Part shown: piece by piece, positions 2,418 to 24,000 of the stretch
How positions within the stretch are numbered: the stretch's first letter is position 1
How the letters are laid out: every line of letters starts with the position of its first letter
Assembly: GCA_020428465.1 (NCBI GenBank)
Contig: JAGQMY010000047.1
Span: 1-24,000 of the forward strand
Reading direction: 5' to 3'
Source of the DNA: Candidatus Saccharimonadota bacterium
GTDB lineage: Bacteria; Patescibacteriota; Saccharimonadia; Saccharimonadales; SZUA-47
Length of the DNA stretch: 24,000 nt
The notes under the pieces: generated by a model
What the model was told of the DNA's origin: nothing
Databases searched by the model: none
The model's input: only the letters and a program-made list of their open reading frames with translations
Program-made: the position numbers and the translations under genes

Positions 2418-2996
2418 CTACAAATTTGCCCCTTCTCCCTTAGCGTTCCGTGTCAAAACAACCTCAAACTCAACGTTCTCTTTATTTATACCAAACCCAG
2501 ACAGTATCTTAGCAGCCATATTTTTAGCACTGTCCTCGCTTATCCCCGGCGAAGTCACATTAACAATATAAATAAACTGGCTTTTAGGATATATATCAAA
2601 ACCCTCACCAGATAATGAGTCTTTATCAAGCGCTAAGCCAGGCTTACCAGGCACCTTATAGGTAAAATCGGTTTTAACACTAAGTGTTTGACCTAGTTCA
2701 TCTTTATATCGGGCGGTTATAATATAGTTTTGTCCATGGCTAAGTATGCTTATAGGCTTTAGCTTGACGGTTTCATCAGCAAAAGAAAGTGTAAAATCAA
2801 AACTTGGGGAAGCTGAAATTTTTAAATCTTCAATACTTTTCGCGTGTGGGGTTTTTAAAATTATTTCTTTTATTTCTTCGGCGGGCACCTCAGAAACACT
2901 ACTATTTTTAAGACCGGTTGATATGATGACTAACAAAATTGCACCAACAAGAAGGCTGGCAAGAAGTTGAGGGTTTCGTCGTAGTTTATCTATCAT
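2418..2996 (-). CDS. Hypothetical bitopic membrane protein (N-terminal TM anchor plus ~160-aa extracytoplasmic domain); last gene of the T4SS-like train
   Basis: 192 aa. Hydrophobic segment LLASLLVGAILLVIISTGL after a basic N-terminus. GGAGG lies 8 nt upstream of the ATG. ATGA overlap with the upstream ORF indicates translational coupling. No recognisable catalytic motif. Confidence 0.6.
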   Translation of the reverse strand: MIDKLRRNPQLLASLLVGAILLVIISTGLKNSSVSEVPAEEIKEIILKTPHAKSIEDLKISASPSFDFTLSFADETVKLKPISILSHGQNYIITARYKDELGQTLSVKTDFTYKVPGKPGLALDKDSLSGEGFDIYPKSQFIYIVNVTSPGISEDSAKNMAAKILSGFGINKENVEFEVVLTRNAKGEGANL

Positions 2997-3970
2997 AGTT
3001 TAACCTCCCATAATCCATTTTCTGCTTCCACTAGGAATTGGCCGTTAATTAATTCGTAAACACCTTTTACCTCATGGAACCTTTTCCCGCTAATTGAACT
3101 AATTTCGGAATCCGTATTGTCGGCTGGAATTACTTTTGTTTTTGTAAAACCAAGCTCATCAAAGACGCACAACCTATCATTAAAAGCGAATGTTTTATCT
3201 AGGTTTATGGAAACACTTAAAACGGATTTTGATTCACCGGTAAGCCTATAAACGAGCTCGTTAGCACCATTCCAAACACTAATATATAATGAGTCGCCCA
3301 GCTTCTTTAGCCCATCTATGCCTAAGGGTAATTTCTGGCAGTTTGTAAGTGGCTCTGATGTTAATGTCTGTAAATCACACAAATACCCAGCACCCTCAGA
3401 CAAATCATTATAGGCTATAAAAGTTTTTTGGCCACTTGGTAATACATATATCCCGCCACCATATGGAACACCATCAATTGCAACCGATTCGTGAGTGTTT
3501 ATGTTGTATGTAGTTAATATGCCGTTTTCGTAATCTTCATCACCCACTTCTGGTGATTGTTGGGTACTGTTTTTATAGTAAAGTATTAACTCCGAAGATA
3601 GCCAGATAGGCGACACTAAACAGTCCATTACTTTATCTCTTAGTTCCAGGTTTTCTAAGTTAAAAACATAACAATTATTACCATCGGTTGCTGATAGCTG
3701 TTCTCCGCCAGGATCAAGTCCGATATTGTAGTACTCAAAGTTTTCGTAAGCACTAGTTTCCCCGTTTATTTTTAATAGTAACTTATCCCCCTCTTTATAT
3801 GCGTAAATCCCGCTTGTAGAAACAGCTACGTCTTTATAGTTGTCAGAGATTTTGTTTAAAACCACAGAGTTTTTGCTGAAGAAACGAGTCGCCGAGTATG
3901 CCAATATAACAAGCAACATAAACAACACCAACGTGTATAGAAATTTAGTGATAGTGTTTGATCTTCTCAT
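2993..3970 (-). CDS. Hypothetical bitopic membrane protein, possibly beta-propeller-like ectodomain
   Basis: The track ORF runs to 4003 but that start is GTG with no SD. The ATG at 3970 gives MRRSNTITKFLYTLVLFMLLVILAYSA, a positive-inside TM anchor, with GAGAG 7 nt upstream. Recurrent short beta-strand-like blocks (IYAYKEGDKLLL, CYVFNLENL, LILYYKN, IYVLPSGQKTFIAY, LYISVWNG) hint at a repeat or propeller fold. Confidence 0.55.
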   Translation of the reverse strand: MRRSNTITKFLYTLVLFMLLVILAYSATRFFSKNSVVLNKISDNYKDVAVSTSGIYAYKEGDKLLLKINGETSAYENFEYYNIGLDPGGEQLSATDGNNCYVFNLENLELRDKVMDCLVSPIWLSSELILYYKNSTQQSPEVGDEDYENGILTTYNINTHESVAIDGVPYGGGIYVLPSGQKTFIAYNDLSEGAGYLCDLQTLTSEPLTNCQKLPLGIDGLKKLGDSLYISVWNGANELVYRLTGESKSVLSVSINLDKTFAFNDRLCVFDELGFTKTKVIPADNTDSEISSISGKRFHEVKGVYELINGQFLVEAENGLWEVKL

Positions 3971-3989
3971 ATATTTACTCTCAGCTTCA

Positions 3990-5720
3990 TTAATATGCTC
4001 CACTCGGAACCGGCTTTACAAGATTTTCATTTAGAAGACTAACGACAGCGTCTGCGTGTTTGTCGAAATATTCAAAAGATTTATCGCTTGAAGCTTCGAC
4101 TAACAATGCCGGTGTACTAGTCTTGTAGTTATACCAGGCTTCGAAAAACCCAGGTCCACTATTCGGACTAGAGGGTTGATTAGTTATTTGAGAATACCGC
4201 AGTGCAAGACTACCGGATTCTGAGTTATTTGGTCCAGAAAAATATACTATATTTGTATTGCTGTGATAACTCAACACAAGACTAGCCTTACCTATACTTA
4301 GTAAAAAGCTTTGAATAGCTTGAGTTTCTGGCTCGCTTGCTGGGCTGGGGCCCTTACAATTGGGACCATCGGCGGGATTTTTTGTACAATCAGCTTGGTC
4401 CCATTTGTAGTCAAAGTTACGATTTAAGTTTACCCCGTTCTTATTAACTCTTCCGGGCGTGTTTTCGTCTGTCAAGCCCGCCCCATTTATTACTGGGATA
4501 GCAATGATTCGGACGTCGGGTGGAAGCTGTTTGTTGTACAAAAGTTCATGTGCTACTATTTGCCCTGCCTCTTCACCACCCGCGTGGATTGTGGCGCCAA
4601 CCACGACAGTCCTAATAGTTGTTTGGCCCGGACATGCATCTCTGATGTAAACGTTTATGTCTTGACCCGCACTATTCTTACCAATAGTCCCTGTTGGCTC
4701 GAGCTCAGACCAGTCAACTCCAACGCCTAGTCTAGTTAGGGTGTGTTGAGTACCTTCACAAGGGATTGCTGAGCCAGTAACTTCGAGATTTCCAAAGCCA
4801 TTACCACTAGATCCAGAACCGCATGCTAAACTATCGCCAGCTAGCTCGACAATAGCATTTATAGTTTCGGTTACGTTATTAAAGTACACGGTATTGTTCT
4901 CTACCCCAGAATACTTAGAAACATATCGTAGTAGATCACCGTTTGCAAATTCGTAGGACAATGAATTTTTAACTGCATCAAACCAACTATATTCACCGTT
5001 TAAACTATTTTCCCAGCTCGACCACTGGTAGACGGACCAAATCTTGTCAGCGCTTGATTGATAGTAGTATACAGTAGGCTGTCCTTTGCCCGCTGTAACA
5101 CCGAATGCATTGTATGAAGAAACTTTTTGTGTGGTGTCCTGTGGACTGGATGATGCCGCCTCACTAGTGGCATAGGTGTTCCATGCCCAACTATCGTTGG
5201 GTCCGGCGACTAGCATGCTGTTTTCTTGTTTCAGCTGAGCAACTGCAAGCATAGGGTTTATCCCACTAGCTGCTCCACCATCTACAAAAGCTTGTCCTAG
5301 GCCCTGAAAAGGTGACGTTTTACTTCCTACGTAGTCGTCTATGTATTGATTGATTGCGGAAGCAAAGCCACCGATACTGTTTATCGTAGGTAAATCTATG
5401 CCTAAGCAACTACTCGAGCCGGATACTCCCGAAGTCTGATTGGGCGTATATGGGTTGAAATAATACGCACCTTGTTTAATGAGCGACTTCACGCAACTAC
5501 TATAGCTTTGTGCATTTACGCGCTCGCAGTAACTATTAATTACTCCGTCTTGTGCTTGACTTATACTTCCGAAAATCATAATAAAACTTACCAGGAGTAA
5601 AAAATAAATATGTAATTTTCGCACAAACAAATAAGCATTGACATAAGACAAAGATGCAAAACTCGACGACACGGTAGTCTCTTCCGCTACCATTGCTCTT
5701 AATCTGGACAAGATAATCAT
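3990..5720 (-). CDS. Secreted or membrane-anchored bifunctional peptidoglycan hydrolase candidate: GH73/FlgJ-type glucosaminidase-like N-domain plus M14 zinc carboxypeptidase-like C-domain
   Basis: 576 aa. Hydrophobic signal/anchor HIYFLLLVSFIMIFGSISQAQ. GINPMLAVAQLKQENS...YNAFGV (about nt 5221-5265) resembles the AQAALESGWG...NNLFGIK pattern of glucosaminidase domains. IHAGGEEAG (His near nt 4584), GVNLNRNFDYKW (nt 4414-4432) and LSYHSNT (nt ~4261-4275) match the M14 HxxE / NRNF / distal-His layout. The start is supported by an ATGA overlap and GGAG 9 nt upstream. Confidence 0.6.
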   Translation of the reverse strand: MIILSRLRAMVAEETTVSSSFASLSYVNAYLFVRKLHIYFLLLVSFIMIFGSISQAQDGVINSYCERVNAQSYSSCVKSLIKQGAYYFNPYTPNQTSGVSGSSSCLGIDLPTINSIGGFASAINQYIDDYVGSKTSPFQGLGQAFVDGGAASGINPMLAVAQLKQENSMLVAGPNDSWAWNTYATSEAASSSPQDTTQKVSSYNAFGVTAGKGQPTVYYYQSSADKIWSVYQWSSWENSLNGEYSWFDAVKNSLSYEFANGDLLRYVSKYSGVENNTVYFNNVTETINAIVELAGDSLACGSGSSGNGFGNLEVTGSAIPCEGTQHTLTRLGVGVDWSELEPTGTIGKNSAGQDINVYIRDACPGQTTIRTVVVGATIHAGGEEAGQIVAHELLYNKQLPPDVRIIAIPVINGAGLTDENTPGRVNKNGVNLNRNFDYKWDQADCTKNPADGPNCKGPSPASEPETQAIQSFLLSIGKASLVLSYHSNTNIVYFSGPNNSESGSLALRYSQITNQPSSPNSGPGFFEAWYNYKTSTPALLVEASSDKSFEYFDKHADAVVSLLNENLVKPVPSGAY

Positions 5721-6349
5721 TGGCTAGCTCCAAAAAGTACGTCAATAATATTTTGAGGTACCCCCAAGTTTACTAGAGACTCCGTGTCAAAGTAACTTCC
5801 GGAAAACAAAATGTCCCAACTGTTATTTCTTAGCCTAGCCAATACTACCTCGCCCTCAACACCTGGACGCGAGCTAAATAATCTACCGGTTGCCCATTCA
5901 TTTTCAATAATTTTGACATTTTTTAAACGATAGCCACCACTAAGTGTGATGACTGAATTTTTTGAGCTTAAAACATCAACCAAATCAGATTCTGTCGATG
6001 TTTTTTTATTAGTAAAGGCAACAGTGCTTTCTACCACTGCATCTTTGTATGTTGTTATGTTTAAGTTTATATCATCAAAATCGGCACTCCTTAAAGTATA
6101 GCTTGCATTACCCAGCGGCAGTCCAACCGCTGCTCCACTTACCGAAATTGATGAGATTAATTGTTCATTACTATCTAATAAATTAATAGGAGAAGCATTC
6201 TCGGGTGTGTAATATAGCCTAAAGTACCCTAAGTTTACATTTGTATCATTACCATTGTTTTTATCATGTTTAACGGAACTCAAATACGAGAATGCAACAA
6301 CAAGCAAAATCGCCACTAACGGCACTATCAATAACTTAATCGTTCGCAT
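5717..6349 (-). CDS. Hypothetical bitopic membrane protein (VirB8-like role possible, unproven)
   Basis: The track ORF starts at 6385, overlapping the upstream gene by 34 nt. The ATG at 6349 gives MRTIKLLIVPLVAILLVVAFSYL, has AGGAG ~10 nt upstream and lies 2 nt after the upstream TAA. Single N-terminal TM plus ~180-aa ectodomain, with no catalytic motif. Confidence 0.6.
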   Translation of the reverse strand: MRTIKLLIVPLVAILLVVAFSYLSSVKHDKNNGNDTNVNLGYFRLYYTPENASPINLLDSNEQLISSISVSGAAVGLPLGNASYTLRSADFDDINLNITTYKDAVVESTVAFTNKKTSTESDLVDVLSSKNSVITLSGGYRLKNVKIIENEWATGRLFSSRPGVEGEVVLARLRNNSWDILFSGSYFDTESLVNLGVPQNIIDVLFGASQ

Positions 6350-6351
6350 GG

Positions 6352-9300
6352 TTACGGCACTCCTGGACCTATGTATCGAGACCAACCACCAGGGTAATCC
6401 GACAGATTACTACTAGTAAACCTAACCGGCTTTCCCCAGGTATTAGTTTCGTAAACTATAATATTGCCACTGGCGTCGGGACTTGAAGCTGCAATGGCAA
6501 CATGTCCACCGGCTGGATTTGACTCGTCGCTATTACATCCAAAACTAATTGTCAAAAAATCTCCGGGGATTATCTCATTTTGATTAACGTGCTCGAATAA
6601 ATCTGGTCTTTGTTGAGATGTCCAGTTCCCTGAGCATCCGACACCTTGATAGTTATATGCTTTAAAAAGCGCAACAGAAGCAAGACCGCTACATTCAAGT
6701 AAGTTATTGGGGCTCAATCCTTCGCTTCTACTTTGTAACCATGATTGTGGTGCTCCGCCATAATTTGAAGATGATGCTGTAAATCCATAAATTTGATTTG
6801 CCGCCACCCCGGAATAGGTGCCATATCCGTTGCCATAGAATGTACCGTCAAACTCCATCGCTGTACATAAAATTCTTTCTGTGTCTGTAACCCCAGATAG
6901 ACATTTTTGTTTAATTTTTAAACAATTATCTTTAATATCCTGACTGTAACTTCTAATGTTAAAGTTATCGGGTGAAAGAACTTCAGTGTATCCATCGCAA
7001 TTTACAATTCTGCCTCCCGCTGTCGAGCTACCTGAGGGTAACGCTATATTATCTAGAAGGTACTGAACCTTTTTTATGTATCCGTCTATTGTGTGATGTA
7101 CGCTATCAGCAAACTCTACATCATCACCGGTGTCCGGTGTAGTTTTTGCATTCTTTACGTATCCATTCCAATCTAGCAATATGATATTTTGACTATCTTG
7201 AAATTGAGAAATTACATCCTCAATTATTGCATTCCTGTCTTCTAGGTTTGAATTGTTATCGGATGACACCAAATTAACGACATAAACGAAAGAATTAGGT
7301 GAAATTTGTTTAATTTGTTTTATCAATTCTGCAAATTTTTCTCTAAAAAGATTCTGGTCAACGTTGCCGCTTGCGTCTACTTCAAGCCTGTTAGTGCCAA
7401 GTCCAACAACAAATGTCCCGGTTTGATTACTCTGTATAATCTGAGTATCGTTTGATAGTGCAGTAATGCCATCAACAATTGTTTCGGAAGGACAGGTTGA
7501 ACCATCACCCGTAATAGGCCCCTGAGTCTGAAATACTGCACGACATCCTTGTGCATTTACTGTGCTTTGCCATCCATGCCCATCAAAAGTTCTTGCAAGA
7601 TAGTTTTTTTCCGGATCGCTACCAGCTAAAGTTTGCATACCCTTAGTTAAAGAGTCTCCCAAAAAATAGATTTGGTTATTAACTGGCGCATCTTCTGGAG
7701 CAGTAAACTCAGACGTCTGAAGCCCAATTTCCGAACAAGATGAATCGTCTCCTTCGCCACATCCTAAACCTAATTCTGTAACTCTATCTGCTAGGTATAA
7801 TCTATAGCGAAGCTGGTCGTCTGTTTTATTGTTGCAATCGGATGAAGTTACGTCATATCTTTCTCTGTCATTATCCACTACGTTAAGTGTTACAGGATCT
7901 ATCTTTTTAGGGAAACATGACCCAAACCTATCATCGAAAGACTGAATATCCGACTCAACAACGTTGGCATTTTCTAATGGATCATCGGCTATCTGACTAT
8001 TTTGTTCAGTTAATGTAAATCCATATTTAGGAAAACCATAGTCAAAGGTATAGTCAGCGGCACTGGCTTTTGTGGTCAAAAAATTAAGTGAATTAAGAGG
8101 GTTTTGAAGTACCAAGCCACCAAATCCCTTCAAATTCATTGGCGTGCTCATTGAAACCCGAGCAACCAAAGAGTCAACATTACTTATGTCAAAATATCTC
8201 TCATAAAGACTTTTTGATTTGTTGTCTAGGGCAATTGTTTGCATCTGGTCTGCGACTAAGGCCTGTTCGTCGCTTTCAGACATTTCTGAACCACCAAAAG
8301 CAAATGATGCCATGTTTGAGGCTATCCTAGCTCCATACATAAGATAATTTCCAAGTTCAGCCCCGACTGCGTATAGATTAATACCTGAACCCGCCAATAT
8401 GTCAACTAACTTTCCTGCAAGCTGATCAGGTGAGAGACCCAAAGGACCGAGAATTGCATTTAGCCCCGCCTGTGATGCTTCGCCTATTTGCTTAAGAACT
8501 GGAAGTCCACCGATAAAATCCTGAACACTACAAATTGTTCCTAATAGCGGAATGTCATCTATTGCCCTGAAAAAGGCTGGCTTCTCGCCTAACTTGCCTG
8601 GCTTTAACTCACTATCTAAATCGGGTCCAGAATCTACACCATTTAGTGATTTTTGAAACGGCTGAGCCATAATTGCATCGGAATTGTTAAGCACATCAAA
8701 TAAATCTTGAGAATAGACCCCAATCTCATCGCTGCTGACATCTTCTCCTGACATTATTTGTGCCCCAAGGGACATGTATGAAGTTGCAACTCTAGCCATG
8801 GGTAAAATTACGTTGGTGTACTGTAAAATTTCCGCTGCATTTCCAAGAGCCTTGACTCCGCATAAAAGAGCAGCGGCTGCTGCTGCGCTTCCGGCGATTC
8901 TACCCGCCACCTTTAGTTTGGCGGCTGCCTTATCGGATATAAAGCTTGGTTTAAGACGATTTTTTTCAGCGGTTTGTGCTACTTCTTCAGCGATATCGTT
9001 TGCTTCGCCAGCAGCAATACTTTCTGGCGTGGTGTCCGGTGTAGTATCAATGTTCCCGTCCCCGTTTGTATCGGTGCCGGTTTTTGGTAGATTAACATCC
9101 GTACTACCATTTGCTACTCTCGCAGCTCTATCTTCTTTGAACTTTAACGCCCACTCAACGAACCTATCGGTCGCCGCTCTTCTCACACTTTGTAACGGAT
9201 GAAGGATATGAAAATCCATCCCGCCATATTTTATTAACAAACGACTTGCTAACTTATCTGGGACACCTTCTATTTCAGCGCCTGCAGTTACAACACGCGC

Positions 9301-10146: not shown

Positions 10147-10158
10147 TTAAACCCCAAA

Positions 10159-12063: not shown

Positions 12064-12869
12064 TATTGTAGCTCCCTCTCAAGTTGTGGCTGAGCAGCGT
12101 GGCCTACGCCCTTTTCAATAACCGGTGCATTCATATCTTCAAAATTCTTGAGCGGCTGACGTGTAGCCGTATCTGGATTGTAGGCATCATAGTAAAGCTC
12201 GATTAATTCCTGGGTATCAAGTGGGATAGAGGCTACGCCAGACTGCTGTAGTCCAGCCATAACGGCTTGGATGCGATTTTTTAACTCTGTTTTTGCTTGC
12301 TCTAGCACCGCTTCGTTGATTACTACTTGTGTATCTTTTTTACCAAATACAGCGGTAAAAAAGTTTTTACTAGCTTTTATGGCTTTCTGCGTGTCCAGTT
12401 GCGGGAAAAAAGGTATAACAACGTAAAATCTCTTATCCATTATGTTGGTCTGCAATGCTAAATTCTCGATAAAGTCTAAGTAGTCGTCCATCAGGAGTGC
12501 GAGCAACATATTATCATGCTCAGAACGAATTTTATCTAGCTTTTCTATATACGGTCGTAGATCGACTTTTTGACTACGGACAAAAATCTGAATCGGAAAG
12601 TATAACGAATTTAGAAAACCTTGGTAGCTGAACTCGACAGCTTCACGCTCCTGGGGGCTCATTAGGTCGAAATTGATACTTTGACAAGCTAAAACAGCTC
12701 GAAAGCTGCCGTCGTTCATTATCACGATACCATCTCGAATCTCGGCAATTTCAAGAGAATTCTGAGTGCTGTTCGGATTCGACTTTACCATAGGTTGAGC
12801 TACAGGTTGACCAGGTACTCCGGGCATGGTCTGCTGAATATTCGGCTGTATCGCTTGGTTTGGATTCAT
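12063..12869 (-). CDS. Soluble T4SS-associated protein of unknown function (reminiscent of a VirB4 N-terminal, non-ATPase domain)
   Basis: 268 aa with no TM and no Walker motif. The Pro/Gln-rich first 40 aa are followed by EIRDGIVIMNDGSFRAVLACQSINFDLMSPQEREAVEFSYQGFLNSLYFPIQIFV, a pattern I associate with N-domains of some Gram-positive VirB4/TraE-type ATPases. AGGTGG SD. Coupled to virB4. Confidence 0.55.
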   Translation of the reverse strand: MNPNQAIQPNIQQTMPGVPGQPVAQPMVKSNPNSTQNSLEIAEIRDGIVIMNDGSFRAVLACQSINFDLMSPQEREAVEFSYQGFLNSLYFPIQIFVRSQKVDLRPYIEKLDKIRSEHDNMLLALLMDDYLDFIENLALQTNIMDKRFYVVIPFFPQLDTQKAIKASKNFFTAVFGKKDTQVVINEAVLEQAKTELKNRIQAVMAGLQQSGVASIPLDTQELIELYYDAYNPDTATRQPLKNFEDMNAPVIEKGVGHAAQPQLERELQ

Positions 12870-12887
12870 TTTCCACCTTTAATCAGG

Positions 12888-14054: not shown

Positions 14055-14189
14055 ATGGCTATAGTATAAAACAGTTAATGCATATAAAGAAACCTAAGGA
14101 TGTTATAACAAGTAACTATAAATTCATGTTGTTTTGGTGTGTGGATTTTATTTAAATGACTAGTAGATAACTAATACTTACTGGTTTGA

Positions 14190-15992
14190 CTATGCGTTGT
14201 CAGGATCGCCGTTATTTTGTTGCTGTTCCTGCTGTCTTCTATATTCCTCGCGACGTCGATTTCTCGCATCAATTAGCGCTTGCTCCCACTCTTGTTGTTT
14301 CCGTTGTTTGCGGCCTGCTTTTAGTTGTTCGTTGTTGTCCTCAACGCGCCTTCGTCTTACTTTTCTTGCGTCTGATCTTTGGCGCCTTCTTAGTTGTTTT
14401 AGTTTTCCGCGATCTTCTGGCTTTGCCGGACTCAAAGACGCTCTGCTGTCTTTTGTTGTAATTTTGATATTTTCCCGTCTTATCCTGCTTAAAGCTGCTT
14501 GCTCGTCAAAACCTTTCAAATTTCCGAATGTATCAATCCATTCTTGTCTTTCCGCCTCCAGGAAGTAGTAGTTACTTGCGTTTAAGATCGATAATTCCTT
14601 TTGATCAATATACTTAAGGTTAGGGAACAATTCACACGCGACATCTGTTATAGCTGCAACCTTTTCCCAGTTCTTCTCGGCTAATGCCGTACCACCGGTA
14701 CGTAATGGCTGGCCGTCAAAGAATAACTGACCAGTTTTCTTATTAAATCTCACAGGTGGCATTGATAGTAAACCTCTGGCGCCCAACTTATCTCTAAGTG
14801 CATGCGCACCAGCATCATCCCCTTCGGGATTGATGTTAGATCCATATCTAAGAATTGAGATAATCATCGCTGCTCTTTGCAGAATAAACTGTGACCTAAT
14901 GAATTCTTCCGATGTTGGTTCTACGGCTTTTTCTATGGTGGTCTCAAGTGCTGTATTAACTATTGTAGTTAGGTTCGCTATGTCTACTGCACTAAATCCT
15001 GATAGCTCGTAAGACCTTATCTTCGCAGCCATTTCCTGGATAAATTTAACCCCATCAACACCCCTATACTCATACTCACCCTTTGCGTTAATTGCATAGT
15101 ATAAGTGCCTAAACGACAAGTGCTGACCTTTGTGTGCGTAACCTATTCCCAAAATCAGTCCCGCAATATCTCTATCTGTAAATGGCCCGCCTTCAAACGA
15201 GTATTGCCTTCGTTTAGCGGCTTCGTTTACTAATTCGAATGTTCTCTTGATTGTCTCTATAAATTGAAGTTCATGAGATGATTTGTGTATCTCATACCAA
15301 AAAGCTGCCGCAAACGCTGAAGGGTCTTGGAACCACTGTTGTCTAGCTTGAGCAACTTGTGCTGCATTGTAAGTTTTGTTTGGGTCGTGTATATCAATCC
15401 ATACTCCTGGTCTATCTGGTGACTCTCGAGCGAACAAAGCACGGATTAGTTCATCTGGACCGGTACTTTCCTTATTGTGCATAAGCTCCATGAAAAGTTT
15501 GTTAGCTTTAGCACGTCTTTCGTCTTGGTTTGTAAAGTTTTCGGTGTTACCAAAATAAATAACACCAGCTTTTCTAACGAACCTCTCGAGTCTCCTGAGT
15601 GGTGCGCCACCAGCTCCTTCAGGTTTGATTCCAGCTCTTTTTACTGCTTCCATGGTTGGAATGGGGTAAGCTTTACCGACCTCTGCAGTTTCGTAACTTG
15701 TCGAAATTCTTGCCCTGTCTTTTGACGATGCGGGCACATTTGAATCGCCTATAAACATTCTTTTTGCTGCTTCAGCAAGCATTCTAAACGTATCAGGGTC
15801 GGATGTATCAAGCTCTTCGTTCACGCCGGGCATACTAAGTGCTGATTGACCTATCAATGCTCGTAACATACTCGGATCAACATCACCCAAACGCGCCATA
15901 TCCGACGGCAATACTAACCCTGATTCAGTCTGTTGCCAATCGAGGCGGGGGTCTTGTGGAACCTGGGGGTTCTGTGGATTAGGGCTGTCCAT
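14190..15992 (-). CDS. Soluble 600-aa protein of unknown function with Arg/Lys/Gln-rich C-terminal tail
   Basis: Long ORF with no TM, no signal peptide and no NTPase motif. The last ~100 aa (nt ~14190-14490) read ...KLKQLRRRQRSDARKVRRRRVEDNNEQLKAGRKQRKQQEWEQALIDARNRRREEYRRQQEQQQ. Embedded between the VirB6-like and PrgI-like genes on the same strand. Confidence 0.7.
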   Translation of the reverse strand: MDSPNPQNPQVPQDPRLDWQQTESGLVLPSDMARLGDVDPSMLRALIGQSALSMPGVNEELDTSDPDTFRMLAEAAKRMFIGDSNVPASSKDRARISTSYETAEVGKAYPIPTMEAVKRAGIKPEGAGGAPLRRLERFVRKAGVIYFGNTENFTNQDERRAKANKLFMELMHNKESTGPDELIRALFARESPDRPGVWIDIHDPNKTYNAAQVAQARQQWFQDPSAFAAAFWYEIHKSSHELQFIETIKRTFELVNEAAKRRQYSFEGGPFTDRDIAGLILGIGYAHKGQHLSFRHLYYAINAKGEYEYRGVDGVKFIQEMAAKIRSYELSGFSAVDIANLTTIVNTALETTIEKAVEPTSEEFIRSQFILQRAAMIISILRYGSNINPEGDDAGAHALRDKLGARGLLSMPPVRFNKKTGQLFFDGQPLRTGGTALAEKNWEKVAAITDVACELFPNLKYIDQKELSILNASNYYFLEAERQEWIDTFGNLKGFDEQAALSRIRRENIKITTKDSRASLSPAKPEDRGKLKQLRRRQRSDARKVRRRRVEDNNEQLKAGRKQRKQQEWEQALIDARNRRREEYRRQQEQQQNNGDPDNA

Positions 15993-16053
15993 ATTTAAAA
16001 CATTAGCACATTATTGCAAAAAAGTAAAGAAGTTTATAGTAAAACAATCAATC

Positions 16054-18690
16054 TTATGACGGATTCCAAGGTGTTGCGGTACCCCCTCCATCATCTTCGT
16101 CATCGGGAGTTGCATCGCCTGCAGCTGCTTGAGCAGGATCGGCAAAGTTAGTGTTTTGACCAGCTAATGTTGCTTGACTTGTTGTGGGATCGCTTGGGAT
16201 TGGCGATGGGGCTACGGGGGTTGGAGGGGATTCTAGTGGCGAATCTGGGTTAAATGCACCACTGTTTTCTTCCTCTGTAACGGCTCTGTCTGCTCGCCTG
16301 GCCCTTCTGTCTTGTCTATATTTTCTTGCTTTTTCTCTTGCACCCCTTACTGTTGGGTGCCAGCCTCGAGCTACTTGCACCGCAGCATTATACGTTTTCA
16401 AATCTCTTACATAGGCTTCTTGTTGCCTTGTGTACTCCTCTTTCTCGGCCGCACCAGCATCATCTCTAGGAGGCGTTGGAGCTTCAGGTTTTTTTGGCAT
16501 TCCCTGCTTAAGCAGAGTTAGCCCGCCACGACCCACCCTAAAATCTGCCCAGTGCAAAGCTCTGTTGCTATGCGACTCTAGTCGGGCATCACGCATACTT
16601 GCACGGGTGTGATTAACTTGATGTCGTCTGCTGGATTGATCATACTCGCTTCCCATGAATTTCTCGTATCGCTTCTTGTTAAAGCCAGTTATAGCACCTG
16701 ATATTGACGATATTGCGCCCCCAGCGAGCTTAAAGGCAAACGGTATTAAGAAAAACGGTATAAAGAGCACTACCAAAGCTACAAACTGATTTATTGTATA
16801 CGAGCCCCCATCACCAGCTGCACTGAACATCATCATTGATAGAAGATCGGCTATAGCAAAAATAGCCATTATTATCGGATAAACCATAAGTGTTTTGATA
16901 AACAAATCAAACCATTTTTTAGCGTACTTTTCCGTACCGGGAATAGCATATAAAGCTAGCGCTATTGGAGATATGACCGCTAAAAGAATAACTAAACCAC
17001 GACGAATAACTATAGTTCCAAAAATAGCAATAGTAGTTAAAAGCATGGGTATTAAGAACGAGTAAAGTAATAATGTGAAGAAGCCACCGGTTGTGAAGAA
17101 GCCGAGGAGAAACTTGCCGCCCAGATACGTAGCAAAAAGTCCCCCAAGACTGAGTAGTTGATTTGGCTTGAATGAGAAACTCCCAGCCCCACCTAACGGA
17201 GCAGTTATAAGTTGGCCAATACCCCTACCTAACACATTAAACACATCTACCGATAGTGCAACAATGAAATACGATATATTTATAAGAATTGCTGCAATTA
17301 AAATTCTTGGCATTGCCTTTTTAGCCGTGTAAGCATCAACCAGTCCACCACCTATAGCTTGACCGAATACGATTACTAGCAGTGCGATGACGAGTATTAT
17401 ATTGCCTAATGTCCTGAATCCTCTCCACACCTGGTATGCTGTGTCATTTGACTCGGTGGTTAAGGGGCTAGTGACGAGGAAAGGTTCTATAATCGAGTGA
17501 AACATCCAGTCTATGCCATCAAGTGCGCCGTTGACAATGGGACAAAAAAGAAAGGCTAACGAGAACCCAGAACTCTCGCAAGTCGGGGTGTCTTCACCGG
17601 TTTCGAGATTAAAGGAACCTGCTTGTTCCTCACCAGTGCCTGCTTCTTTATTGGCATTTTCGTTATCTAATAGCGGATAGCTCACTCCTGTAATTGGCGG
17701 AACACGATAGTAGTCATGAGATTGAAACGTACCAGCTTTATCTACATCTTCTCTGACATCAACAACCTGACAATCAGAAATATTTATTGCGCTTATACCC
17801 CATTCTGAAGCTGGTTTTTGTGAACCGTAAGCGTCTCCGTCACTAAGTGAACCATTTGCAACTAATATGTAGTATTTCATCGTAGCAGGATTGGTTGATT
17901 TATCGACGATTATTACATCATCACATGGACCCACCTCGTCTGCTCTAAAGACATTAGGTTCGCTTGAGTCTTGAACAAAGGGAGTAGGAATATTTTTTAT
18001 GGAAGTTGCATGATCGCTCTCGACTATTCTAATTGTCAAATCTACTGCTGGTTCAATCTTTGCACTATCTACCCAGCGAAAATAAGCAGTACTGAATTGG
18101 GTGTTTTTAACCGATATGCTACCAGTATTATCAACCTTATTTCCGTCACTGTCTATGTGGGTATTTAAATCACCGGAGTCTTTGCACTCTGTTCCATCAG
18201 AATTGTAGAAATCGATATCGGTTTTAACCTTGGTAAGTGGTGTGTTGTCTAAAAAATTATCTTGATTGGTTATACTATCGGCAATGAATGTAATCTTATT
18301 ATAACAAGACGAAGGCCAGCCCTGTATCTCATAATCTGTACTTTGTCTGTGGTTACCATCAGTAAGGCTCGTTCTCTGGGCGATAACACCTTTGGCATCA
18401 CCATGGCCGTCTTTCGGTACTACGTCATAACTAATTCCTGGTTTTGTTTTAAAAGTTAGTTTAGCAAGACCGGCATTTACCCAAGTAAATTCAAATATAT
18501 CGGCCGGATTGCCAATAATCCTTCCCTTACTGTCTGTGGTTAAACCGTACGTTTCAGGTACAGCTACTCCATTTTCCGCGGCCTTAGCTGTCTGAAATAG
18601 CCCGTTCACAATGAAAGAGTTAAGAATAAATATAATGAATATTAAAAATATAAATATTCTCTTTTGTTTTTTTACGATAGGAAAAACCAT
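16054..18690 (-). CDS. TrbL/VirB6-like polytopic T4SS channel protein with large N-terminal ectodomain and ~200-aa charged C-terminal tail
   Basis: 878 aa. Signal/anchor IFIFLIFIIFILNSFIVNGLFQTAKA, then a ~340-aa ectodomain. At least 6 hydrophobic helices follow, including the ISPIALALYAIPGTEKYAKKW..L...M.YP block typical of TrbL/VirB6. The tail (nt 16054-16680) is rich in R/E/P. Confidence 0.7.
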   Translation of the reverse strand: MVFPIVKKQKRIFIFLIFIIFILNSFIVNGLFQTAKAAENGVAVPETYGLTTDSKGRIIGNPADIFEFTWVNAGLAKLTFKTKPGISYDVVPKDGHGDAKGVIAQRTSLTDGNHRQSTDYEIQGWPSSCYNKITFIADSITNQDNFLDNTPLTKVKTDIDFYNSDGTECKDSGDLNTHIDSDGNKVDNTGSISVKNTQFSTAYFRWVDSAKIEPAVDLTIRIVESDHATSIKNIPTPFVQDSSEPNVFRADEVGPCDDVIIVDKSTNPATMKYYILVANGSLSDGDAYGSQKPASEWGISAINISDCQVVDVREDVDKAGTFQSHDYYRVPPITGVSYPLLDNENANKEAGTGEEQAGSFNLETGEDTPTCESSGFSLAFLFCPIVNGALDGIDWMFHSIIEPFLVTSPLTTESNDTAYQVWRGFRTLGNIILVIALLVIVFGQAIGGGLVDAYTAKKAMPRILIAAILINISYFIVALSVDVFNVLGRGIGQLITAPLGGAGSFSFKPNQLLSLGGLFATYLGGKFLLGFFTTGGFFTLLLYSFLIPMLLTTIAIFGTIVIRRGLVILLAVISPIALALYAIPGTEKYAKKWFDLFIKTLMVYPIIMAIFAIADLLSMMMFSAAGDGGSYTINQFVALVVLFIPFFLIPFAFKLAGGAISSISGAITGFNKKRYEKFMGSEYDQSSRRHQVNHTRASMRDARLESHSNRALHWADFRVGRGGLTLLKQGMPKKPEAPTPPRDDAGAAEKEEYTRQQEAYVRDLKTYNAAVQVARGWHPTVRGAREKARKYRQDRRARRADRAVTEEENSGAFNPDSPLESPPTPVAPSPIPSDPTTSQATLAGQNTNFADPAQAAAGDATPDDEDDGGGTATPWNPS

Positions 18691-18803
18691 AATCTATAGG
18701 TACAACTATATCAAGAAAATAGATAAAAGTTTATTACTTTTTCATAGAATAGGGTTTTTTATGTAATATAATGATTAATTATGCTAGGATATAAATAGTA
18801 GTT
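18691..18803. promoter_or_regulatory. AT-rich divergent promoter region between the VirB6-like operon (-) and the pilin array (+)
   Basis: 113-nt A/T-rich spacer between divergent starts. Plus-strand TATAAT at 18767-18772 and TATAAA at 18790-18795 (8 nt before the ATG at 18804). Minus-strand TATAGT at 18710-18705 (14 nt before the ATG at 18690). Neither first gene has an SD. Confidence 0.4.
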
Positions 18804-19538
18804 ATGCAAAAAATAAAACATATCCAACCCAAAGCAATTCAAATAATATTTACACTTTCCTCGGCTTTATTACTCACATTACTAATCAGACCTAGCTATG
18901 CAAGCGCAGCTCTATCACCAGGCTGTTACATACAAGGACCCTCGGGTGGCTATACAGAGCATGATTGTGTGAATAGTGACACTGACCCAAATACTCAATG
19001 CGAGATTACGATCAGTTCTAGGAGCGGCCCCTCAACTACTACGATTAAAGATTGTGATACTTTAAGTCAGCCGACACAGAGTGATGGGGGTACGAGTGGT
19101 GGTACAGATACTAATCCAGGATCAGCAAACCTAAACTGTACAAGTGGTGGCTCATCTGATATTTGTAGCCCAATAAGTCCTGGAGGCGAAACAAGCACCT
19201 CCACAGGCACCGATGGTAAACAATGCGGTCGCGGTGAATCAGCTGTTGTTTTGAGCATTTCTATCGGTTGTAGGGGTAATGACTGGCCAGGCGTAGATTC
19301 TGTTAATCCTATCATAGATATGGTTTTAGCAGTGGTAAGATTCCTGAGTTTGGGTGTTGGAGTCGTAGTAGTTGGATCGATTATTTGGGCTGGGATCCAA
19401 TATTCCACATCAAGAGGTGACCCCCAAGCAGTTTCAGCATCTATAAATAGGGTTACAAATTCATTTATAGCATTATTGTTGTATATATTTATCTTTGCGA
19501 TTGCAAACTTTTTAGTTCCGGGGGGCATGTTTATATGA
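18804..19538 (+). CDS. T4SS pilin-like protein (VirB2/TrbC topology), enlarged paralog 1 with Cys/Ser/Thr/Gly-rich ectodomain
   Basis: 244 aa. Signal peptide ...LLIRPSYASA, a ~130-aa S/T/G-rich region with about nine Cys, then the TM hairpin LAVVRFLSLGVGVVVVGSIIWAGIQYSTSRGDPQAV...FIALLLYIFIFAIANFLV shared with the downstream paralogs. Confidence 0.7.
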   Translation: MQKIKHIQPKAIQIIFTLSSALLLTLLIRPSYASAALSPGCYIQGPSGGYTEHDCVNSDTDPNTQCEITISSRSGPSTTTIKDCDTLSQPTQSDGGTSGGTDTNPGSANLNCTSGGSSDICSPISPGGETSTSTGTDGKQCGRGESAVVLSISIGCRGNDWPGVDSVNPIIDMVLAVVRFLSLGVGVVVVGSIIWAGIQYSTSRGDPQAVSASINRVTNSFIALLLYIFIFAIANFLVPGGMFI

Positions 19539-19984
19539 TAAAGAAGCTTATTTCTAAGTTTCTATTGTTCCAACTCGGCGTATTTATATTTGTGCCTATT
19601 ACAAACATTGGTGTCGCAAGTGCTGCAGATTCGGGATGTACTGGTGGAAGTTTCTTAGGTTTTCCAACTTGGTATGAGTATTTAGATAAACAATCAGTCC
19701 CAAATGACATTACGACCGACCCAAATGATGAAATATGCGAGCTAAAGGTAGACAATATTAAAGACTTCTGGCTTATCGCACTCGCCGTGATAGAGATACT
19801 GCTTAGGGTAGCATCTATTCTTGCGGTAGGTATGCTAATTTATGGTGGAGTTAGTTATGTGATTAGCGAGGGTAATCCTGAAAAAACTAAAAAAGCACAA
19901 AGCACTATTATTAATGCAATCGTAGGTCTAGCCATAAGTATAGTAGCGGCATCTGTCATCGGGTTCGTTGCGAGGAGTTTTTGA
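19535..19984 (+). CDS. T4SS pilin-like protein, paralog 2
   Basis: 149 aa. Signal peptide ..NIGVASA/AD, Cys pair (SGC...EIC), TM1 LAVIEILLRVASILAVGMLIYGG, loop VSYVISEGNPEKTKKA, TM2 IINAIVGLAISIVAASVIGFV. ATGA overlap with paralog 1. Confidence 0.75.
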   Translation: MIKKLISKFLLFQLGVFIFVPITNIGVASAADSGCTGGSFLGFPTWYEYLDKQSVPNDITTDPNDEICELKVDNIKDFWLIALAVIEILLRVASILAVGMLIYGGVSYVISEGNPEKTKKAQSTIINAIVGLAISIVAASVIGFVARSF

Positions 19985-19987
19985 TTT

Positions 19988-20320
19988 ATGAATTATCTAT
20001 TATTAAATAGTCGTTTATCACAGCTTAAAAATTGTAACCCTGGTTCCGGAAATACGGAAAATGTTAATTGCAATACCACCTTACCTGACGTGTCGGCGAG
20101 TAGTGACACCTTATCTAAAGTTTTGCCTATTTTGTTCGGCACAATTACTGCTATAGCGGTTCTTATTATTGTTGTTCAGGGGATACGTTTTGTTTTGAGC
20201 AAGGGTGAACCGGATAAAGCACTGCAAGCTCGAAAGGGTGTTATTTATGCTGCAGTTGGCCTTGCCGTTGTCTTTATGGCAGACATAATTGTCGCATTTA
20301 TTTTAAAGAGGTTCCTATAA
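19988..20320 (+). CDS. T4SS pilin-like protein, paralog 3 (no recognisable signal peptide)
   Basis: 110 aa. Same C-terminal hairpin (ITAIAVLIIVVQGIRFVLSKGEPDKALQARKGVIYAAVGLAVVFMADIIV) and a Cys pair (NCNPGSGNTENVNC). The N-terminus MNYLLLNSRLSQLK lacks a hydrophobic signal core. GAGGAG SD upstream. Confidence 0.65.
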   Translation: MNYLLLNSRLSQLKNCNPGSGNTENVNCNTTLPDVSASSDTLSKVLPILFGTITAIAVLIIVVQGIRFVLSKGEPDKALQARKGVIYAAVGLAVVFMADIIVAFILKRFL

Positions 20321-20739
20321 TGCGAAAAATTTCACTCTTTATTTTATGCATGCTATCGTTGTCATTTAGTGTTTTTACCACATTCATACCTGTTGCTGGT
20401 GCTGTTGATCTGAATAGTGAAGTATGTACCACTTCAGATCCTGCCAATCGCCCAAGTATCTGTAATGATTTAGATCCCCTTAGTCCTGAAGCCAAAAATG
20501 TAAATCCACTCTATGGTCCCGAAGGCATTATTACTAGGGCAGTCAACGGGCTTTCTCTTTTAGCGGGATTGATATCTGTAATTATGATAATAATCGCCGG
20601 AATAAAGGTTAGCATGTCAACTGGTGATGCTGGTAAGATTAAAGCGGCGCGAGATCAAATTATTTACGCCATAGTTGGGTTGATCGTAGCAGGATTAGCT
20701 CAAGCAATTGTAAGGCTACTGCTAAACAGGATTGGATAA
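20320..20739 (+). CDS. T4SS pilin-like protein, paralog 4
   Basis: 139 aa. Signal peptide ..IPVAGA/VD, Cys pair (EVC...SIC), hairpin LLAGLISVIMIIIAGIKVSMSTGDAGKIKAARDQIIYAIVGLIVAGLAQAIV. TAATG overlap with paralog 3 and AAGAGG SD. Confidence 0.75.
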   Translation: MRKISLFILCMLSLSFSVFTTFIPVAGAVDLNSEVCTTSDPANRPSICNDLDPLSPEAKNVNPLYGPEGIITRAVNGLSLLAGLISVIMIIIAGIKVSMSTGDAGKIKAARDQIIYAIVGLIVAGLAQAIVRLLLNRIG

Positions 20740-20768
20740 TAGAATATGAAAAGGAGTATCAATCAATA

Positions 20769-21233
20769 ATGAAACGAATAATATATGGGTTTTTCGGAAT
20801 TCTTTTATCTGTGGGAATATTTATATTGCCCGTAACAGTTAATGCGAGCCCATTTGACTCGGCAAGAGATACGGCTTGCCAAGGTCTAGAATTTAGCGAT
20901 GGAGACAGCACTACTTGTGATACCAGCGATGGTACAAAGATAAACTCTACCGTGGCAACAGCGATCAACTTAATTTCGCTCGTGGTTGGATTTGTGTCCG
21001 TAATTATGGTAATAGTTGGTGGTCTAAAATACACAACTTCGCATGGTGATTCAAGCGGAATTAGTAGTGCTAAGGACACTATTCTTTATGCAATAATTGG
21101 CCTAATAATCGTCGCAATGGCCCAATTGATGGTAAGGTTTGTACTAAGTAAAACAGCAGATAATAGTTCAGATAGCCCAGGCGTAGGATCGTCCATTAAC
21201 GATTGTGCTCCAGGGCAAACTCCACCATGCTAG
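20769..21233 (+). CDS. T4SS pilin-like protein, paralog 5 (extra Cys-containing C-terminal tail)
   Basis: 154 aa. Signal peptide ..VTVNA/SP, Cys pair (ACQGLEFSDGDSTTC), hairpin LVVGFVSVIMVIVGGLKYTTSHGDSSGISSAKDTILYAIIGLIIVAMAQLMV, then the tail ...SSINDCAPGQTPPC. AAAGGAG SD. Confidence 0.8.
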   Translation: MKRIIYGFFGILLSVGIFILPVTVNASPFDSARDTACQGLEFSDGDSTTCDTSDGTKINSTVATAINLISLVVGFVSVIMVIVGGLKYTTSHGDSSGISSAKDTILYAIIGLIIVAMAQLMVRFVLSKTADNSSDSPGVGSSINDCAPGQTPPC

Positions 21234-21255
21234 GATTGCTATAGTAATCGTGTTA

Positions 21256-21264
21256 TGTTATAAA
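21256..21264 (+). promoter_or_regulatory. Candidate extended -10 promoter element for pilin paralog 6
   Basis: TGTTATAAA, that is TG-n-TATAAA, lies in the 65-nt spacer before the 21299 start. No convincing -35. AT-rich context makes chance matches likely. Confidence 0.3.
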
Positions 21265-21298
21265 CTAATTAAACTAAATAAAAGGAATTAAAAAAGTC

Positions 21299-21715
21299 AT
21301 GAACAGAATCAAAAGAGTAATTATCAGCCTAATAGCGGTACTTGGTTTAGCAGTACCAATGTTCGCACCAGCAGTCGCTTCAGCAGCAGAAATCGACAAT
21401 AACCTATCATGTGGAGCTAACTTAGATTTCACAAATTCTGGTGGTGATTGTGAATCAAATAATAAAGACGGTGATGCAAGCTCAAGAGTTCAAAAAATAG
21501 TTACAAACATTATCAACATCGTATCTCTAGTAGTCGGTGTCGCTGCAGTCATTATGATAATGGTTGGGGGCTTGCGCTATATCACCTCTAATGGTGATTC
21601 TGGCCAAGTTGGAAACGCTAAGAACACAATTCTTTATGCTGTAGTTGGTCTTATTGTTGTAGCTCTAGCTCAAATCATTGTGCGATTTGTAGTTAACAAA
21701 GCAACAACTGCTTAA
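21299..21715 (+). CDS. T4SS pilin-like protein, paralog 6 (candidate major pilin)
   Basis: 138 aa. Signal peptide ..APAVASA/AE, Cys pair (LSCGANLDFTNSGGDC), hairpin LVVGVAAVIMIMVGGLRYITSNGDSGQVGNAKNTILYAVVGLIVVALAQIIVRFV. Has its own upstream spacer and a downstream hairpin. Confidence 0.8.
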   Translation: MNRIKRVIISLIAVLGLAVPMFAPAVASAAEIDNNLSCGANLDFTNSGGDCESNNKDGDASSRVQKIVTNIINIVSLVVGVAAVIMIMVGGLRYITSNGDSGQVGNAKNTILYAVVGLIVVALAQIIVRFVVNKATTA

Positions 21716-21735
21716 TTAAAACAGATAATTCAGAT

Positions 21736-21767
21736 AAAGCACTTTCGCAGAAGCCGGAAGTGCTTTT
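21736..21767 (+). terminator. Candidate intrinsic terminator after pilin paralog 6
   Basis: AAAGCACTT (21736-21744) pairs with AAGTGCTTT (21758-21766) around a 13-nt loop, followed by a short T run. The stem is only moderately GC-rich and the loop is long, so it may be a partial terminator or attenuator. Confidence 0.45.
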
Positions 21768-21823
21768 CAGTTGTATGTAATTTATGCTAATCTTATTCTT
21801 AGAAACAAGGAGTAAATCTAAAA

Positions 21824-22267
21824 GTGAAAAGACTCAAATCAATCATTTATACATTAGCTATCGCAATAGGAATTGCAGCACCATTAGCTATTGCATCGCC
21901 AGCTGGTGCACAAGATATAGAAAAAAATCTACAATGTGGTGCTAATCTCAAATTTTCGATGGCCGATGGCAGCTGTGAAGTGGATAATAACGGTAATACT
22001 GCAGCTGAAAGAATCGACCAGATTGTTTCACAAGTAATCAATTTGCTGTCACTAGCAGTTGGAGTTGTAGCAGTAATCATGATTATCGTCGGTGGATTCA
22101 AATACATTACATCTGGGGGTGATTCAGGTAATGTTACGGGCGCAAAGAACACTATACTTTACGCTGTAGTAGGGCTAATTGTCGTAGCTTTGGCACAAGT
22201 AATCGTAAGATTCGTGGTAGACCGCGCTACACTAACTGGTAATACAACCGGATCAGCTACCGATTAG
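21824..22267 (+). CDS. T4SS pilin-like protein, paralog 7 (close duplicate of paralog 6)
   Basis: 147 aa. GTG start with AAGGAG 11 nt upstream. Signal peptide ..ASPAGA/QD, Cys pair (LQCGANLKFSMADGSC), hairpin LAVGVVAVIMIIVGGFKYITSGGDSGNVTGAKNTILYAVVGLIVVALAQVIVRFV, near-identical to paralog 6. Confidence 0.8.
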   Translation: MKRLKSIIYTLAIAIGIAAPLAIASPAGAQDIEKNLQCGANLKFSMADGSCEVDNNGNTAAERIDQIVSQVINLLSLAVGVVAVIMIIVGGFKYITSGGDSGNVTGAKNTILYAVVGLIVVALAQVIVRFVVDRATLTGNTTGSATD

Positions 22268-22290
22268 AATTTACATTCAATAATGTATTA

Positions 22291-22319
22291 AAAAACGCCC
22301 GGACAAAACCGGGCGTTTT
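22291..22319. terminator. Bidirectional intrinsic terminator between convergent pilin 7 and hsp20
   Basis: AAAACGCCCGG (22292-22302) and CCGGGCGTTTT (22309-22319) form a perfect 11-bp GC-rich stem around the loop ACAAAA. A-run and T-run flanks allow it to work on both strands. Confidence 0.8.
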
Positions 22320-22832: not shown

Positions 22833-23054
22833 TTTCATTCCCTCCTTAAAAAATAGAGCTTGTATGGGACAACCTGTTTTGGGTTGCCCCGAGACATTCA
22901 AGCGTGTTTATGTTAAAGATAGTATAACTGAGAAAGACTGCAATGAGCAACATTGTCAAACTTATTTACAACATAATAAAGACAACGGACTGCACATTTA
23001 CGCAAAACCCTATTTACTTTTTTAGATTATATTTTATCGTGTCATAATGCGACT

Positions 23055-23723: not shown

Positions 23724-23728
23724 AAAGA

Positions 23729-23983: not shown

Positions 23984-24000
23984 GTCATCTAAATACTGTT

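Follow-up and report, generated by a model that had tools for sequence, protein, structure and literature searches.

RESULTS

Gene content and layout of the locus

The DNA analysed here, called the window below, is a 24,000-nt stretch of contig JAGQMY010000047.1 (assembly GCA_020428465.1) from a Saccharimonadales bacterium, and it carries a type IV secretion system (T4SS) locus enclosed by dnaN-recF on one side and hsp20-comFC on the other. Between these flanks lie ten co-directional genes on the minus strand (2418-18690) and seven divergent VirB2-like pilin genes on the plus strand (18804-22267). Read in the direction of transcription, the minus-strand genes encode an 878-aa VirB6/TrbL-like protein (16054-18690), a 600-aa soluble protein (14190-15992), a PrgI/VirB3-like protein of 388 aa (12888-14054), a 268-aa TrsD-like protein (12063-12869), VirB4 (634 aa, 10159-12063), a giant protein of 1264 aa with SGNH and NlpC/P60 domains (6352-10146), a 222-aa bitopic protein (5717-6385), a 576-aa hydrolase with GH73-like and M14 domains (3990-5720) and two further bitopic proteins of 336 aa (2993-4003) and 192 aa (2418-2996).

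Several junctions in the locus are tight: 4-nt ATGA overlaps join the 336-aa gene to the 192-aa gene, the 222-aa gene to the 576-aa gene and the first pilin gene to the second, a TAGTG stop/start overlap joins the 268-aa gene to virB4, and the spacer between virB4 and the gene of the giant protein is 12 nt. A first-pass annotation, made from the sequence alone, had described the minus-strand genes as one tightly coupled train. The common direction and the junctions it quoted are as described, but the train is not equally tight throughout, since gaps of 61 nt (between the 878- and 600-aa genes) and 135 nt (between the 600-aa gene and prgI) divide it into at least three blocks. The listed starts of the 336-aa and 222-aa open reading frames (ORFs) are GTG and TTG, respectively; both are uncertain, and internal ATGs are more plausible.

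VirB4, its putative detached N-terminal domain and PrgI

VirB4 scores 356 bits against conju_CD1110, the NCBIfam family of the CD1110 conjugative-transposon VirB4, and passes the equivalog cut-off of 325 bits; the second-best NCBIfam match is the model of the VirB4 of a Mycoplasma integrative and conjugative element (ICE). Pfam matches are P-loop_TraG, AAA_10 and DUF87, and the Walker A (KSGAGKS) and Walker B (ILIVDEAW) motifs on which the first-pass annotation had based its VirB4 assignment are both present in the translation. Weak matches to the CedB (1e-14) and CedD (8e-6) models are far under their cut-offs. The alignment covers only positions 177-733 of the 752 positions of the CD1110 model, and on these comparisons VirB4 is predicted to be of the MPF_FATA type without the usual N-terminal domain.

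The protein encoded by the preceding gene would supply this domain. In NCBIfam, the 268-aa protein matches TrsD (2.1e-6), positions 98-284 of VirB4_plasma (1.7e-5) and positions 2-102 of CD1110 (7.5e-5), all below the cut-offs, and a protein identical to it carries a precomputed PF26593 TraC-like label. Because of these three matches and the TraC-like label, the 268-aa protein is assigned as a TrsD-like VirB4 N-terminal domain, split off as a gene of its own. A phmmer search of the PDB sequences with the 268-aa protein gave no match.

The assignment of the PrgI/VirB3-like protein, by contrast with these sub-threshold matches, is secure at the level of family profiles: residues 5-90 match PF12666 with 50.4 bits against a cut-off of 27. 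This membrane protein carries a low-complexity C-terminal extension of ∼300 aa.

A putative extended VirB6 encoded by two genes

The 878-aa protein is polytopic, with a beta-rich extracellular N-terminal domain of ∼330 aa, and had been read as TrbL/VirB6-like from the start. No Pfam family was matched by it at threshold. Below threshold, its C-terminal half aligns with Pfam TrbL (E 0.0062, profile positions 25-210 of 215), and the NCBIfam CD3337/EF1877 mobilome membrane family is matched at 3e-4; when its homologues were searched individually, 5 of 37 matched TrbL, down to 1.6e-6. In the AlphaFold2 (AF2) model, based on 70 homologues, the membrane bundle (residues ∼370-700) has pLDDT values of 85-96, and the top five Foldseek matches of the model in the PDB are TrwJ/VirB5-TrwI/VirB6 stalk chains of R388 (probability 0.90-1.00, E 0.008-0.04, target TM-score 0.34-0.40). 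A search of the PDB sequences with the VirB6-like family profile gave nothing meaningful. Each of these lines of evidence is weak alone, and they agree; on profile and model together, we accept the 878-aa protein as probably VirB6/TrbL-like.

The 600-aa protein is, as first described, soluble: it has no transmembrane (TM) segment and has a basic coiled tail. Four relatives were found by a word-index search of 5.8 billion proteins and 39 by a HMMER search of 1.84 billion cluster representatives, and several of the latter are the C-terminal parts of homologues of the 878-aa protein (P0031, P0101, P0059 and P0014). With phmmer, the 600-aa protein likewise matches the C-terminal parts of VirB6-like ORFs in four related loci (L065, L043, L028 and L008); in L065, a single ORF (4376-7861) contains the membrane core at residues 476-819 and the core domain of the 600-aa protein at residues 846-1040. 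Alignment of the 600-aa family with the fused homologues by hhalign gave a probability of 99.7% (E 1.8e-25), with residues 132-343 aligned to residues 685-870 of P0059. Because of the fused ORFs and this alignment, the 600-aa protein is assigned as the C-terminal domain of an extended VirB6, detached from its membrane core.

This domain has its own gene in the window and in locus L003 (two genes at 2921-5488 and 5523-7880), directly downstream of VirB6 and encoding a free-standing protein of 600-785 aa, and it is fused in the four loci named above and in many database homologues. Since the same split is found in L003, which is an independent assembly, it is no assembly error. AF2 modelled the 600-aa protein poorly (5-sequence alignment, mean pLDDT 56), and a Foldseek search of the PDB with that model gave nothing below E 0.1, just generic helical repeats; therefore no fold is assigned to it.

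The pilin array

All of the seven genes that had been taken for VirB2/TrbC-type pilins by their topology match PF18895 (T4SS_pilin), with E-values from 1e-4 to 7.5e-14, and several additionally match TrbC/VirB2 weakly. They run on the plus strand as p1 (18804-19538), p2 (19535-19984), p3 (19988-20320), p4 (20320-20739), p5 (20769-21233), p6 (21299-21715) and p7 (21824-22267). Six of them exceed the cut-off of 26.6 bits, and p1 scores 22.5 bits. Pairwise identity within the array is 20-57%. Each pilin has two TM helices and a variable segment that contains Cys, and all but p3 also have a signal peptide. The p3 ORF (110 aa) begins 3 nt past the preceding stop codon, which leaves no room for a longer ORF.

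Cell-wall hydrolases and bitopic proteins

Two proteins of the minus-strand train carry predicted wall-hydrolase domains, and their domain pairs agree with the first description, GH73-like plus M14 in one and SGNH plus NlpC/P60 in the other. The GH73 and NlpC/P60 domains are unseen by single-sequence Pfam searches even at E≤10, and single-sequence searches of the PDB were near-null, so profiles of the families were needed to find them. In the 576-aa protein, the M14 domain (residues 345-565) passes the Pfam cut-off (PF00246, 60.6 bits), and NCBIfam MpaA is matched below cut-off (2.8e-7). The GH73-like domain lies at residues ∼95-335; a profile of this segment from six related loci matches only GH73 chains in the PDB (5wqw 1.3e-3, FlgJ 0.017, LytB-type 0.055-0.075). 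Both the YNxFG motif and the catalytic Glu align, and 8 of 15 homologues match PF01832. These results support the prediction that the 576-aa protein is a secreted or anchored peptidoglycan hydrolase, combining a GH73-like glucosaminidase with an M14 carboxypeptidase or MpaA-like amidase.

The 1264-aa giant has a disordered N-terminus, followed by a TM segment (residues 124-142), a conserved module of ∼680 aa, an SGNH/GDSL domain (826-1024) that passes the Pfam cut-offs, and an NlpC/P60 domain (∼1090-1264). Its C-terminal ∼170 residues have an invariant Cys and an invariant His in the family alignment, and their profile matches NlpC/P60 structures, the best at 1.9e-7, with the Tn916-like CTn7-Orf16 and CTn1-Orf17 at ∼4e-4. 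Residues 1-820 (7687-10146), ∼800 aa with a bitopic topology, make up a module in which the cysteines C429, C744 and C771 are invariant; it is encoded by the gene straight after virB4 in no fewer than 45 loci. Neither as a single sequence nor as a profile does the N-terminal module match Pfam or the PDB, and its family members have no Pfam match either. The catalytic domains on this module and on the next gene vary by lineage and include M14, SGNH, NlpC/P60, VanY, M23, GH73, C39-like, SLT and phage-tail lysozyme domains. Thus, the N-terminal part of the giant is best described as a putative conserved scaffold with interchangeable wall-hydrolase domains, which would have been shuffled between lineages.

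A single hydrophobic segment lies near the N-terminus of each of the three remaining proteins, as expected of the bitopic proteins that they had been called: residues 11-29 in the 192-aa, 17-35 in the 336-aa and 18-36 in the 222-aa protein. The 192-aa protein is fast-evolving and occupies the position of SEML1_0004/0005 in Southlakia epibionticum; it has no match in Pfam, NCBIfam or the PDB, and jackhmmer found no homologue of it in 80 related loci. The same jackhmmer search found no homologue of the 336-aa protein. A WD40 match of the 336-aa protein (E 9e-14) is the sum over a repetitive target in which no single stretch passes, and involves residues 232-269 only; its ectodomain may be beta-propeller-like, and we take this as a hint only. 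A homologue of the 222-aa protein is present at the same position in L003, and part of a hydrolase in L011 matches it as well.

Conservation of the locus in related genomes

In species-representative genomes, more than 580 relatives of VirB4 were found, with identities of 81-89% among the best 80, and all that are named come from Saccharibacteria, Saccharimonadales or Patescibacteria metagenome-assembled genomes, in agreement with the link to the candidate phyla radiation (CPR) and Saccharibacteria that had been suggested for this locus. Synteny and identity were counted in the 45 related loci that span 20 kb or more, ranked by VirB4 identity. dnaN-recF lies on the same side in 43 of the 45, the TrsD-like gene adjoins virB4 in all 45, prgI is present in all 45, VirB6 in 42 and the pilin array in 41-42. 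hsp20 was counted in 29 loci and comFC in 12, numbers limited by the 10-kb flank, and both follow wherever the flank reaches. In L018 and L003, dnaA adjoins dnaN.

Median identity to the window over these loci is 83% for VirB4 and 70% for the TrsD-like protein, against 57.5% for DnaN and 46% for RecF, a contrast that is perhaps somewhat inflated by the ranking of loci by VirB4 identity. PrgI, VirB6, the pilins and the hydrolases have medians of 29-51%, and the three small bitopic proteins are undetectable. By these identities, VirB4 appears to be under stronger constraint than DnaN. A conserved VirB4 and TrsD-like pair together with fast-evolving exposed parts would fit a core motor with a host-adapted periphery.

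Borders, flanking genes and transcription signals

The flanks are housekeeping genes, as the first-pass annotation had recognised, and both Pfam and synteny bear this out. On the left are dnaN (166-1263, plus strand) and recF (1349-2413, plus strand; Pfam SMC_N), and on the right hsp20 (22341-22901, minus strand; Pfam HSP20) and comFC (23055-23723, plus strand; Pfam Pribosyltran/DZR_2). The hsp20 ORF as listed has a TTG start and 186 aa, and its orthologue in S. epibionticum has 166 aa; an internal Met (MKMARKS...) ∼22 residues in is the more plausible start. Beyond comFC, an open frame on the minus strand (23724-24000) extends into the window across its right end and codes for a hydrophobic, membrane-protein-like C-terminus. 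In S. epibionticum a tRNA-Ser occupies the position right of comFC, and none was found there in the window.

The window was likewise found to be free of the mobility genes that the first-pass annotation had failed to see. None of its 21 proteins matches a relaxase family in Pfam or NCBIfam, no VirD4/TcpA-type coupling ATPase is present by the same two collections, VirB4 being the sole P-loop T4SS ATPase there, and no integrase domain was found by Pfam. The window contains no tRNA, no Rfam match and no long direct or flanking repeats usable as attachment sites, only repeats of 18-27 nt at chance level. Its GC content varies from 0.36 to 0.45, without a compositional step at the borders of the locus.

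A scan of the window for sigma-70 consensus promoters was at chance (48 found versus 48.2 expected), and we therefore do not use it to place operon boundaries. TATAAT-like boxes, without a Shine-Dalgarno sequence, stand 6-8 nt before the starts of prgI, the 600-aa gene, the VirB6-like gene, the first pilin gene and comFC (14055-14075, 15993-16010, 18691-18710, 18780-18803 and 23035-23054, respectively), and the transcripts of these five genes may be leaderless.

DISCUSSION

Origin and function of the locus

We regard it as highly probable that the locus is a chromosomal, vertically inherited, origin-proximal T4SS of Saccharibacteria (Saccharimonadales), orthologous to SEML1_0004-0019 of S. epibionticum ML1; vertical inheritance follows from the synteny with the same flanks that is conserved across related loci. 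A core of monoderm (MPF_FATA) ancestry is shown by the family comparisons, with VirB4, the TrsD-like protein, PrgI/VirB3 and an extended VirB6 predicted to be split into 878 and 600 aa. The first-pass annotation had concluded that this is a domesticated, non-conjugative T4SS. Such a reading, for an epibiotic Saccharibacterium, is supported here: it matches the published conclusion on systems of this type, and it is reinforced because the chromosomal synteny is conserved in 42-43 of the 45 loci.

The same evidence bears on the view that the locus is an ordinary ICE, or the remnant of one, inserted beside the replication origin, and that the relaxase, coupling protein and integrase of this element are encoded outside the window. 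VirB4 is indeed nearest to the VirB4s of conjugative transposons (CD1110), the NlpC/P60 domain resembles the hydrolases of Tn916-like conjugative elements, and the contig that carries the locus extends over just ∼24.4 kb. An insertion of this kind is nevertheless hard to reconcile with the same housekeeping flanks on both sides in 42-43 of 45 genomes so diverged that their DnaN is just 57.5% identical, with a VirB4 that is more constrained than DnaN, or with borders that have no compositional step, and relaxases are found in only 103 Patescibacteria genomes, rarely near virB4 (PMC12102498). Because of the synteny, and of the absence of attachment-site, integrase and tRNA features from the window, we reject the ICE view, which is very improbable. 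A machine for the import of DNA or other nucleic acids, like ComB of Helicobacter or the archaeal Ced system, which would act with comFC to feed a nucleotide-auxotrophic epibiont, would account for comFC as the immediate neighbour, kept where the flank reaches, for the lack of a relaxase or coupling protein in the window and for the weak CedB/CedD matches of VirB4; moreover, a 2026 preprint describes feeding on host RNA in another Patescibacterium and suggests that tubular structures seen there are T4SS pili. The Ced matches, however, are generic P-loop similarity. In S. epibionticum, deletion of comEC ends competence and viability is kept, whereas the T4SS is essential (PMC12857230), and comFC (SEML1_0021) is non-essential (PMC10633639); these data argue against classical transformation, and import is unlikely as the function.

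It has also to be considered that the locus is mainly an organelle for adhesion and wall breaching, in which a pilin fibre binds the host and the hydrolases digest its wall, with no substrate passing through a channel. Seven divergent pilin paralogues with variable, Cys-containing exposed regions, hydrolase domains rapidly shuffled between lineages and the fast evolution of the peripheral genes would all be expected of such an organelle. Yet VirB4, the TrsD-like protein and the TM core of VirB6 are the most conserved parts, as expected if the machine does more than secrete pilins, and adhesion in Saccharibacteria is attributed to type IV pili, so we hold this possibility to be quite unlikely.

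Several points also weigh against the domesticated T4SS that we prefer. The absence of relaxase and coupling protein holds for the 24-kb window only and a distant genomic copy is possible, as VirD4-like genes are far from virB4 in many Patescibacteria (PMC12102498). Support for VirB6 is individually weak (sequence E 0.006, Foldseek E ∼0.01, TM-score ∼0.4). No VirB8-like (NTF2-fold) component was identified in the window, where sequence searches of Pfam, NCBIfam and the PDB with the 192-, 222- and 336-aa bitopic proteins gave no match. Essentiality is known for a single distant relative, S. epibionticum ML1 (PMC10633639).

For the domesticated T4SS we propose the following mechanism. VirB4 and the TrsD-like protein would energise a VirB3(PrgI)/VirB6 membrane channel, and the same channel would drive polymerisation of the VirB2-like pilins, giving a filament or conduit on the cell surface. 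The anchored hydrolases would cut a passage through peptidoglycan, either in the wall of the epibiont itself or, more probably, in that of the host; the host wall is the likelier target because domains are shuffled in a lineage-specific way and exposed parts evolve fast. The assembled machine would then move proteins or other macromolecules, not conjugating DNA, across the epibiont-host interface. All of these steps, pilus assembly and the target of the hydrolases among them, are what we infer for this locus.

Two linked proposals go beyond this mechanism, and we offer them tentatively, giving a small chance to their holding together. The free-standing C-terminal domain of VirB6 might be a cytoplasmic docking or gating module for substrates that replaces the type IV coupling protein (T4CP), and the shuffled hydrolases on the ∼800-aa scaffold, together with the pilin array, might determine host range. 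If so, the set of hydrolases and pilins would be tuned to the chemistry of the host wall, like the tail lysins and receptor-binding proteins of phages.

Few machines are known without which CPR bacteria cannot live as epibionts, and the T4SS of Saccharibacteria is one of them. The window provides another well-resolved orthologue of it, with three refinements of annotation (the 268-aa protein, the 600-aa protein and the giant) that could guide experiments. The first-pass annotation had counted the 268-aa and 600-aa proteins among soluble unknowns; both are assignable, and the share of coding capacity it gave as without assignable function, more than half, was somewhat overstated. It had further suggested profile searches for the T4SS families, in which VirB4, PrgI and six pilins pass their cut-offs, but VirB6 stays below threshold. 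Its view of the novelty of the locus was likewise overstated, while it acknowledged prior reports.

Comparison with known systems

The type of locus is already published, and the non-conjugative reading is the published conclusion (PMC10633639, PMC12102498, PMC12857230). Wang 2023 (PMC10633639) described an apparent T4SS, SEML1_0006-0019, in S. epibionticum ML1, most like the conjugative systems of Gram-positive bacteria, with an essential series of pilins and no recognisable coupling or relaxase proteins. The gene order given there is dnaN, recF, two small exported proteins, a lysozyme/cysteine-protease, a peptidase, VirB4, an unknown, PrgI, a T4SS protein, VirB6, six pilins, Hsp20 and ComFC, and by transposon sequencing of co-cultures grown on Actinomyces nearly all of the T4SS genes, pilins and hydrolases included, are essential. 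The window shares the flanks and the gene order, gene for gene with SEML1_0002-0021, and neither cluster has a relaxase or coupling protein. It differs in having seven pilins where ML1 has six, in that no NTF2-like (VirB8-like) gene was recognised between PrgI and VirB6, and in having the 600-aa soluble protein, the putative VirB6 C-terminal domain, where ML1 has the 999-aa SEML1_0011. The hydrolases differ as well, with GH73-like plus M14 and SGNH plus NlpC/P60 in the window, and two lysozyme domains plus a cysteine protease and a DD-peptidase-type giant in ML1.

Across the Patescibacteria, Quinonero-Coronel 2025 (PMC12102498) found a VirB4 clade sister to MPF_FATA, homologues of TrsD, VirB3 and VirB6 in the vicinity of virB4, VirB2 arrays of 2-11 genes (mean identity ∼25%), hardly any relaxases, and loci near dnaA/dnaN. 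The window shares with these systems the MPF_FATA-related VirB4, TrsD, VirB3/PrgI, VirB6, the VirB2 array, the absence of a relaxase and the proximity to the origin, and there is no difference in kind; to that survey it adds a putative VirB6 C-terminal domain with a gene to itself, and a giant after virB4 whose N-terminal module is conserved. A 2025 review lists the T4SS of Saccharibacteria as the first T4SS essential for its own carrier, with the speculation that its pilus acts as a conduit.

With the MPF_FATA conjugative T4SSs (Prg of pCF10, Tra of pIP501, Tn916 and other conjugative transposons), the window has in common VirB4 (CD1110), PrgI/VirB3, a VirB6-like protein and an anchored multi-domain VirB1-like hydrolase with C-terminal NlpC/P60 or CHAP. 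Unlike those systems, its block has no relaxase, T4CP, origin of transfer (oriT) or integrase, its VirB4 is apparently split into two genes, it has VirB2-type pilins, which the Gram-positive conjugative systems lack, and it is chromosomal, origin-proximal and vertically conserved. The extended VirB6 proteins, e.g. those of Rickettsiales (PMC12857230), have the polytopic core and large hydrophilic extra domains in common with the VirB6 described here, whose C-terminal domain is free-standing in the window and in L003. What the present analysis adds to the published systems is thus modest: the probable fission of VirB6, a conserved scaffold that appears to carry shuffled hydrolases, the contrast in conservation between parts of the locus, and the 268-aa protein as a putative split N-terminal domain of VirB4.

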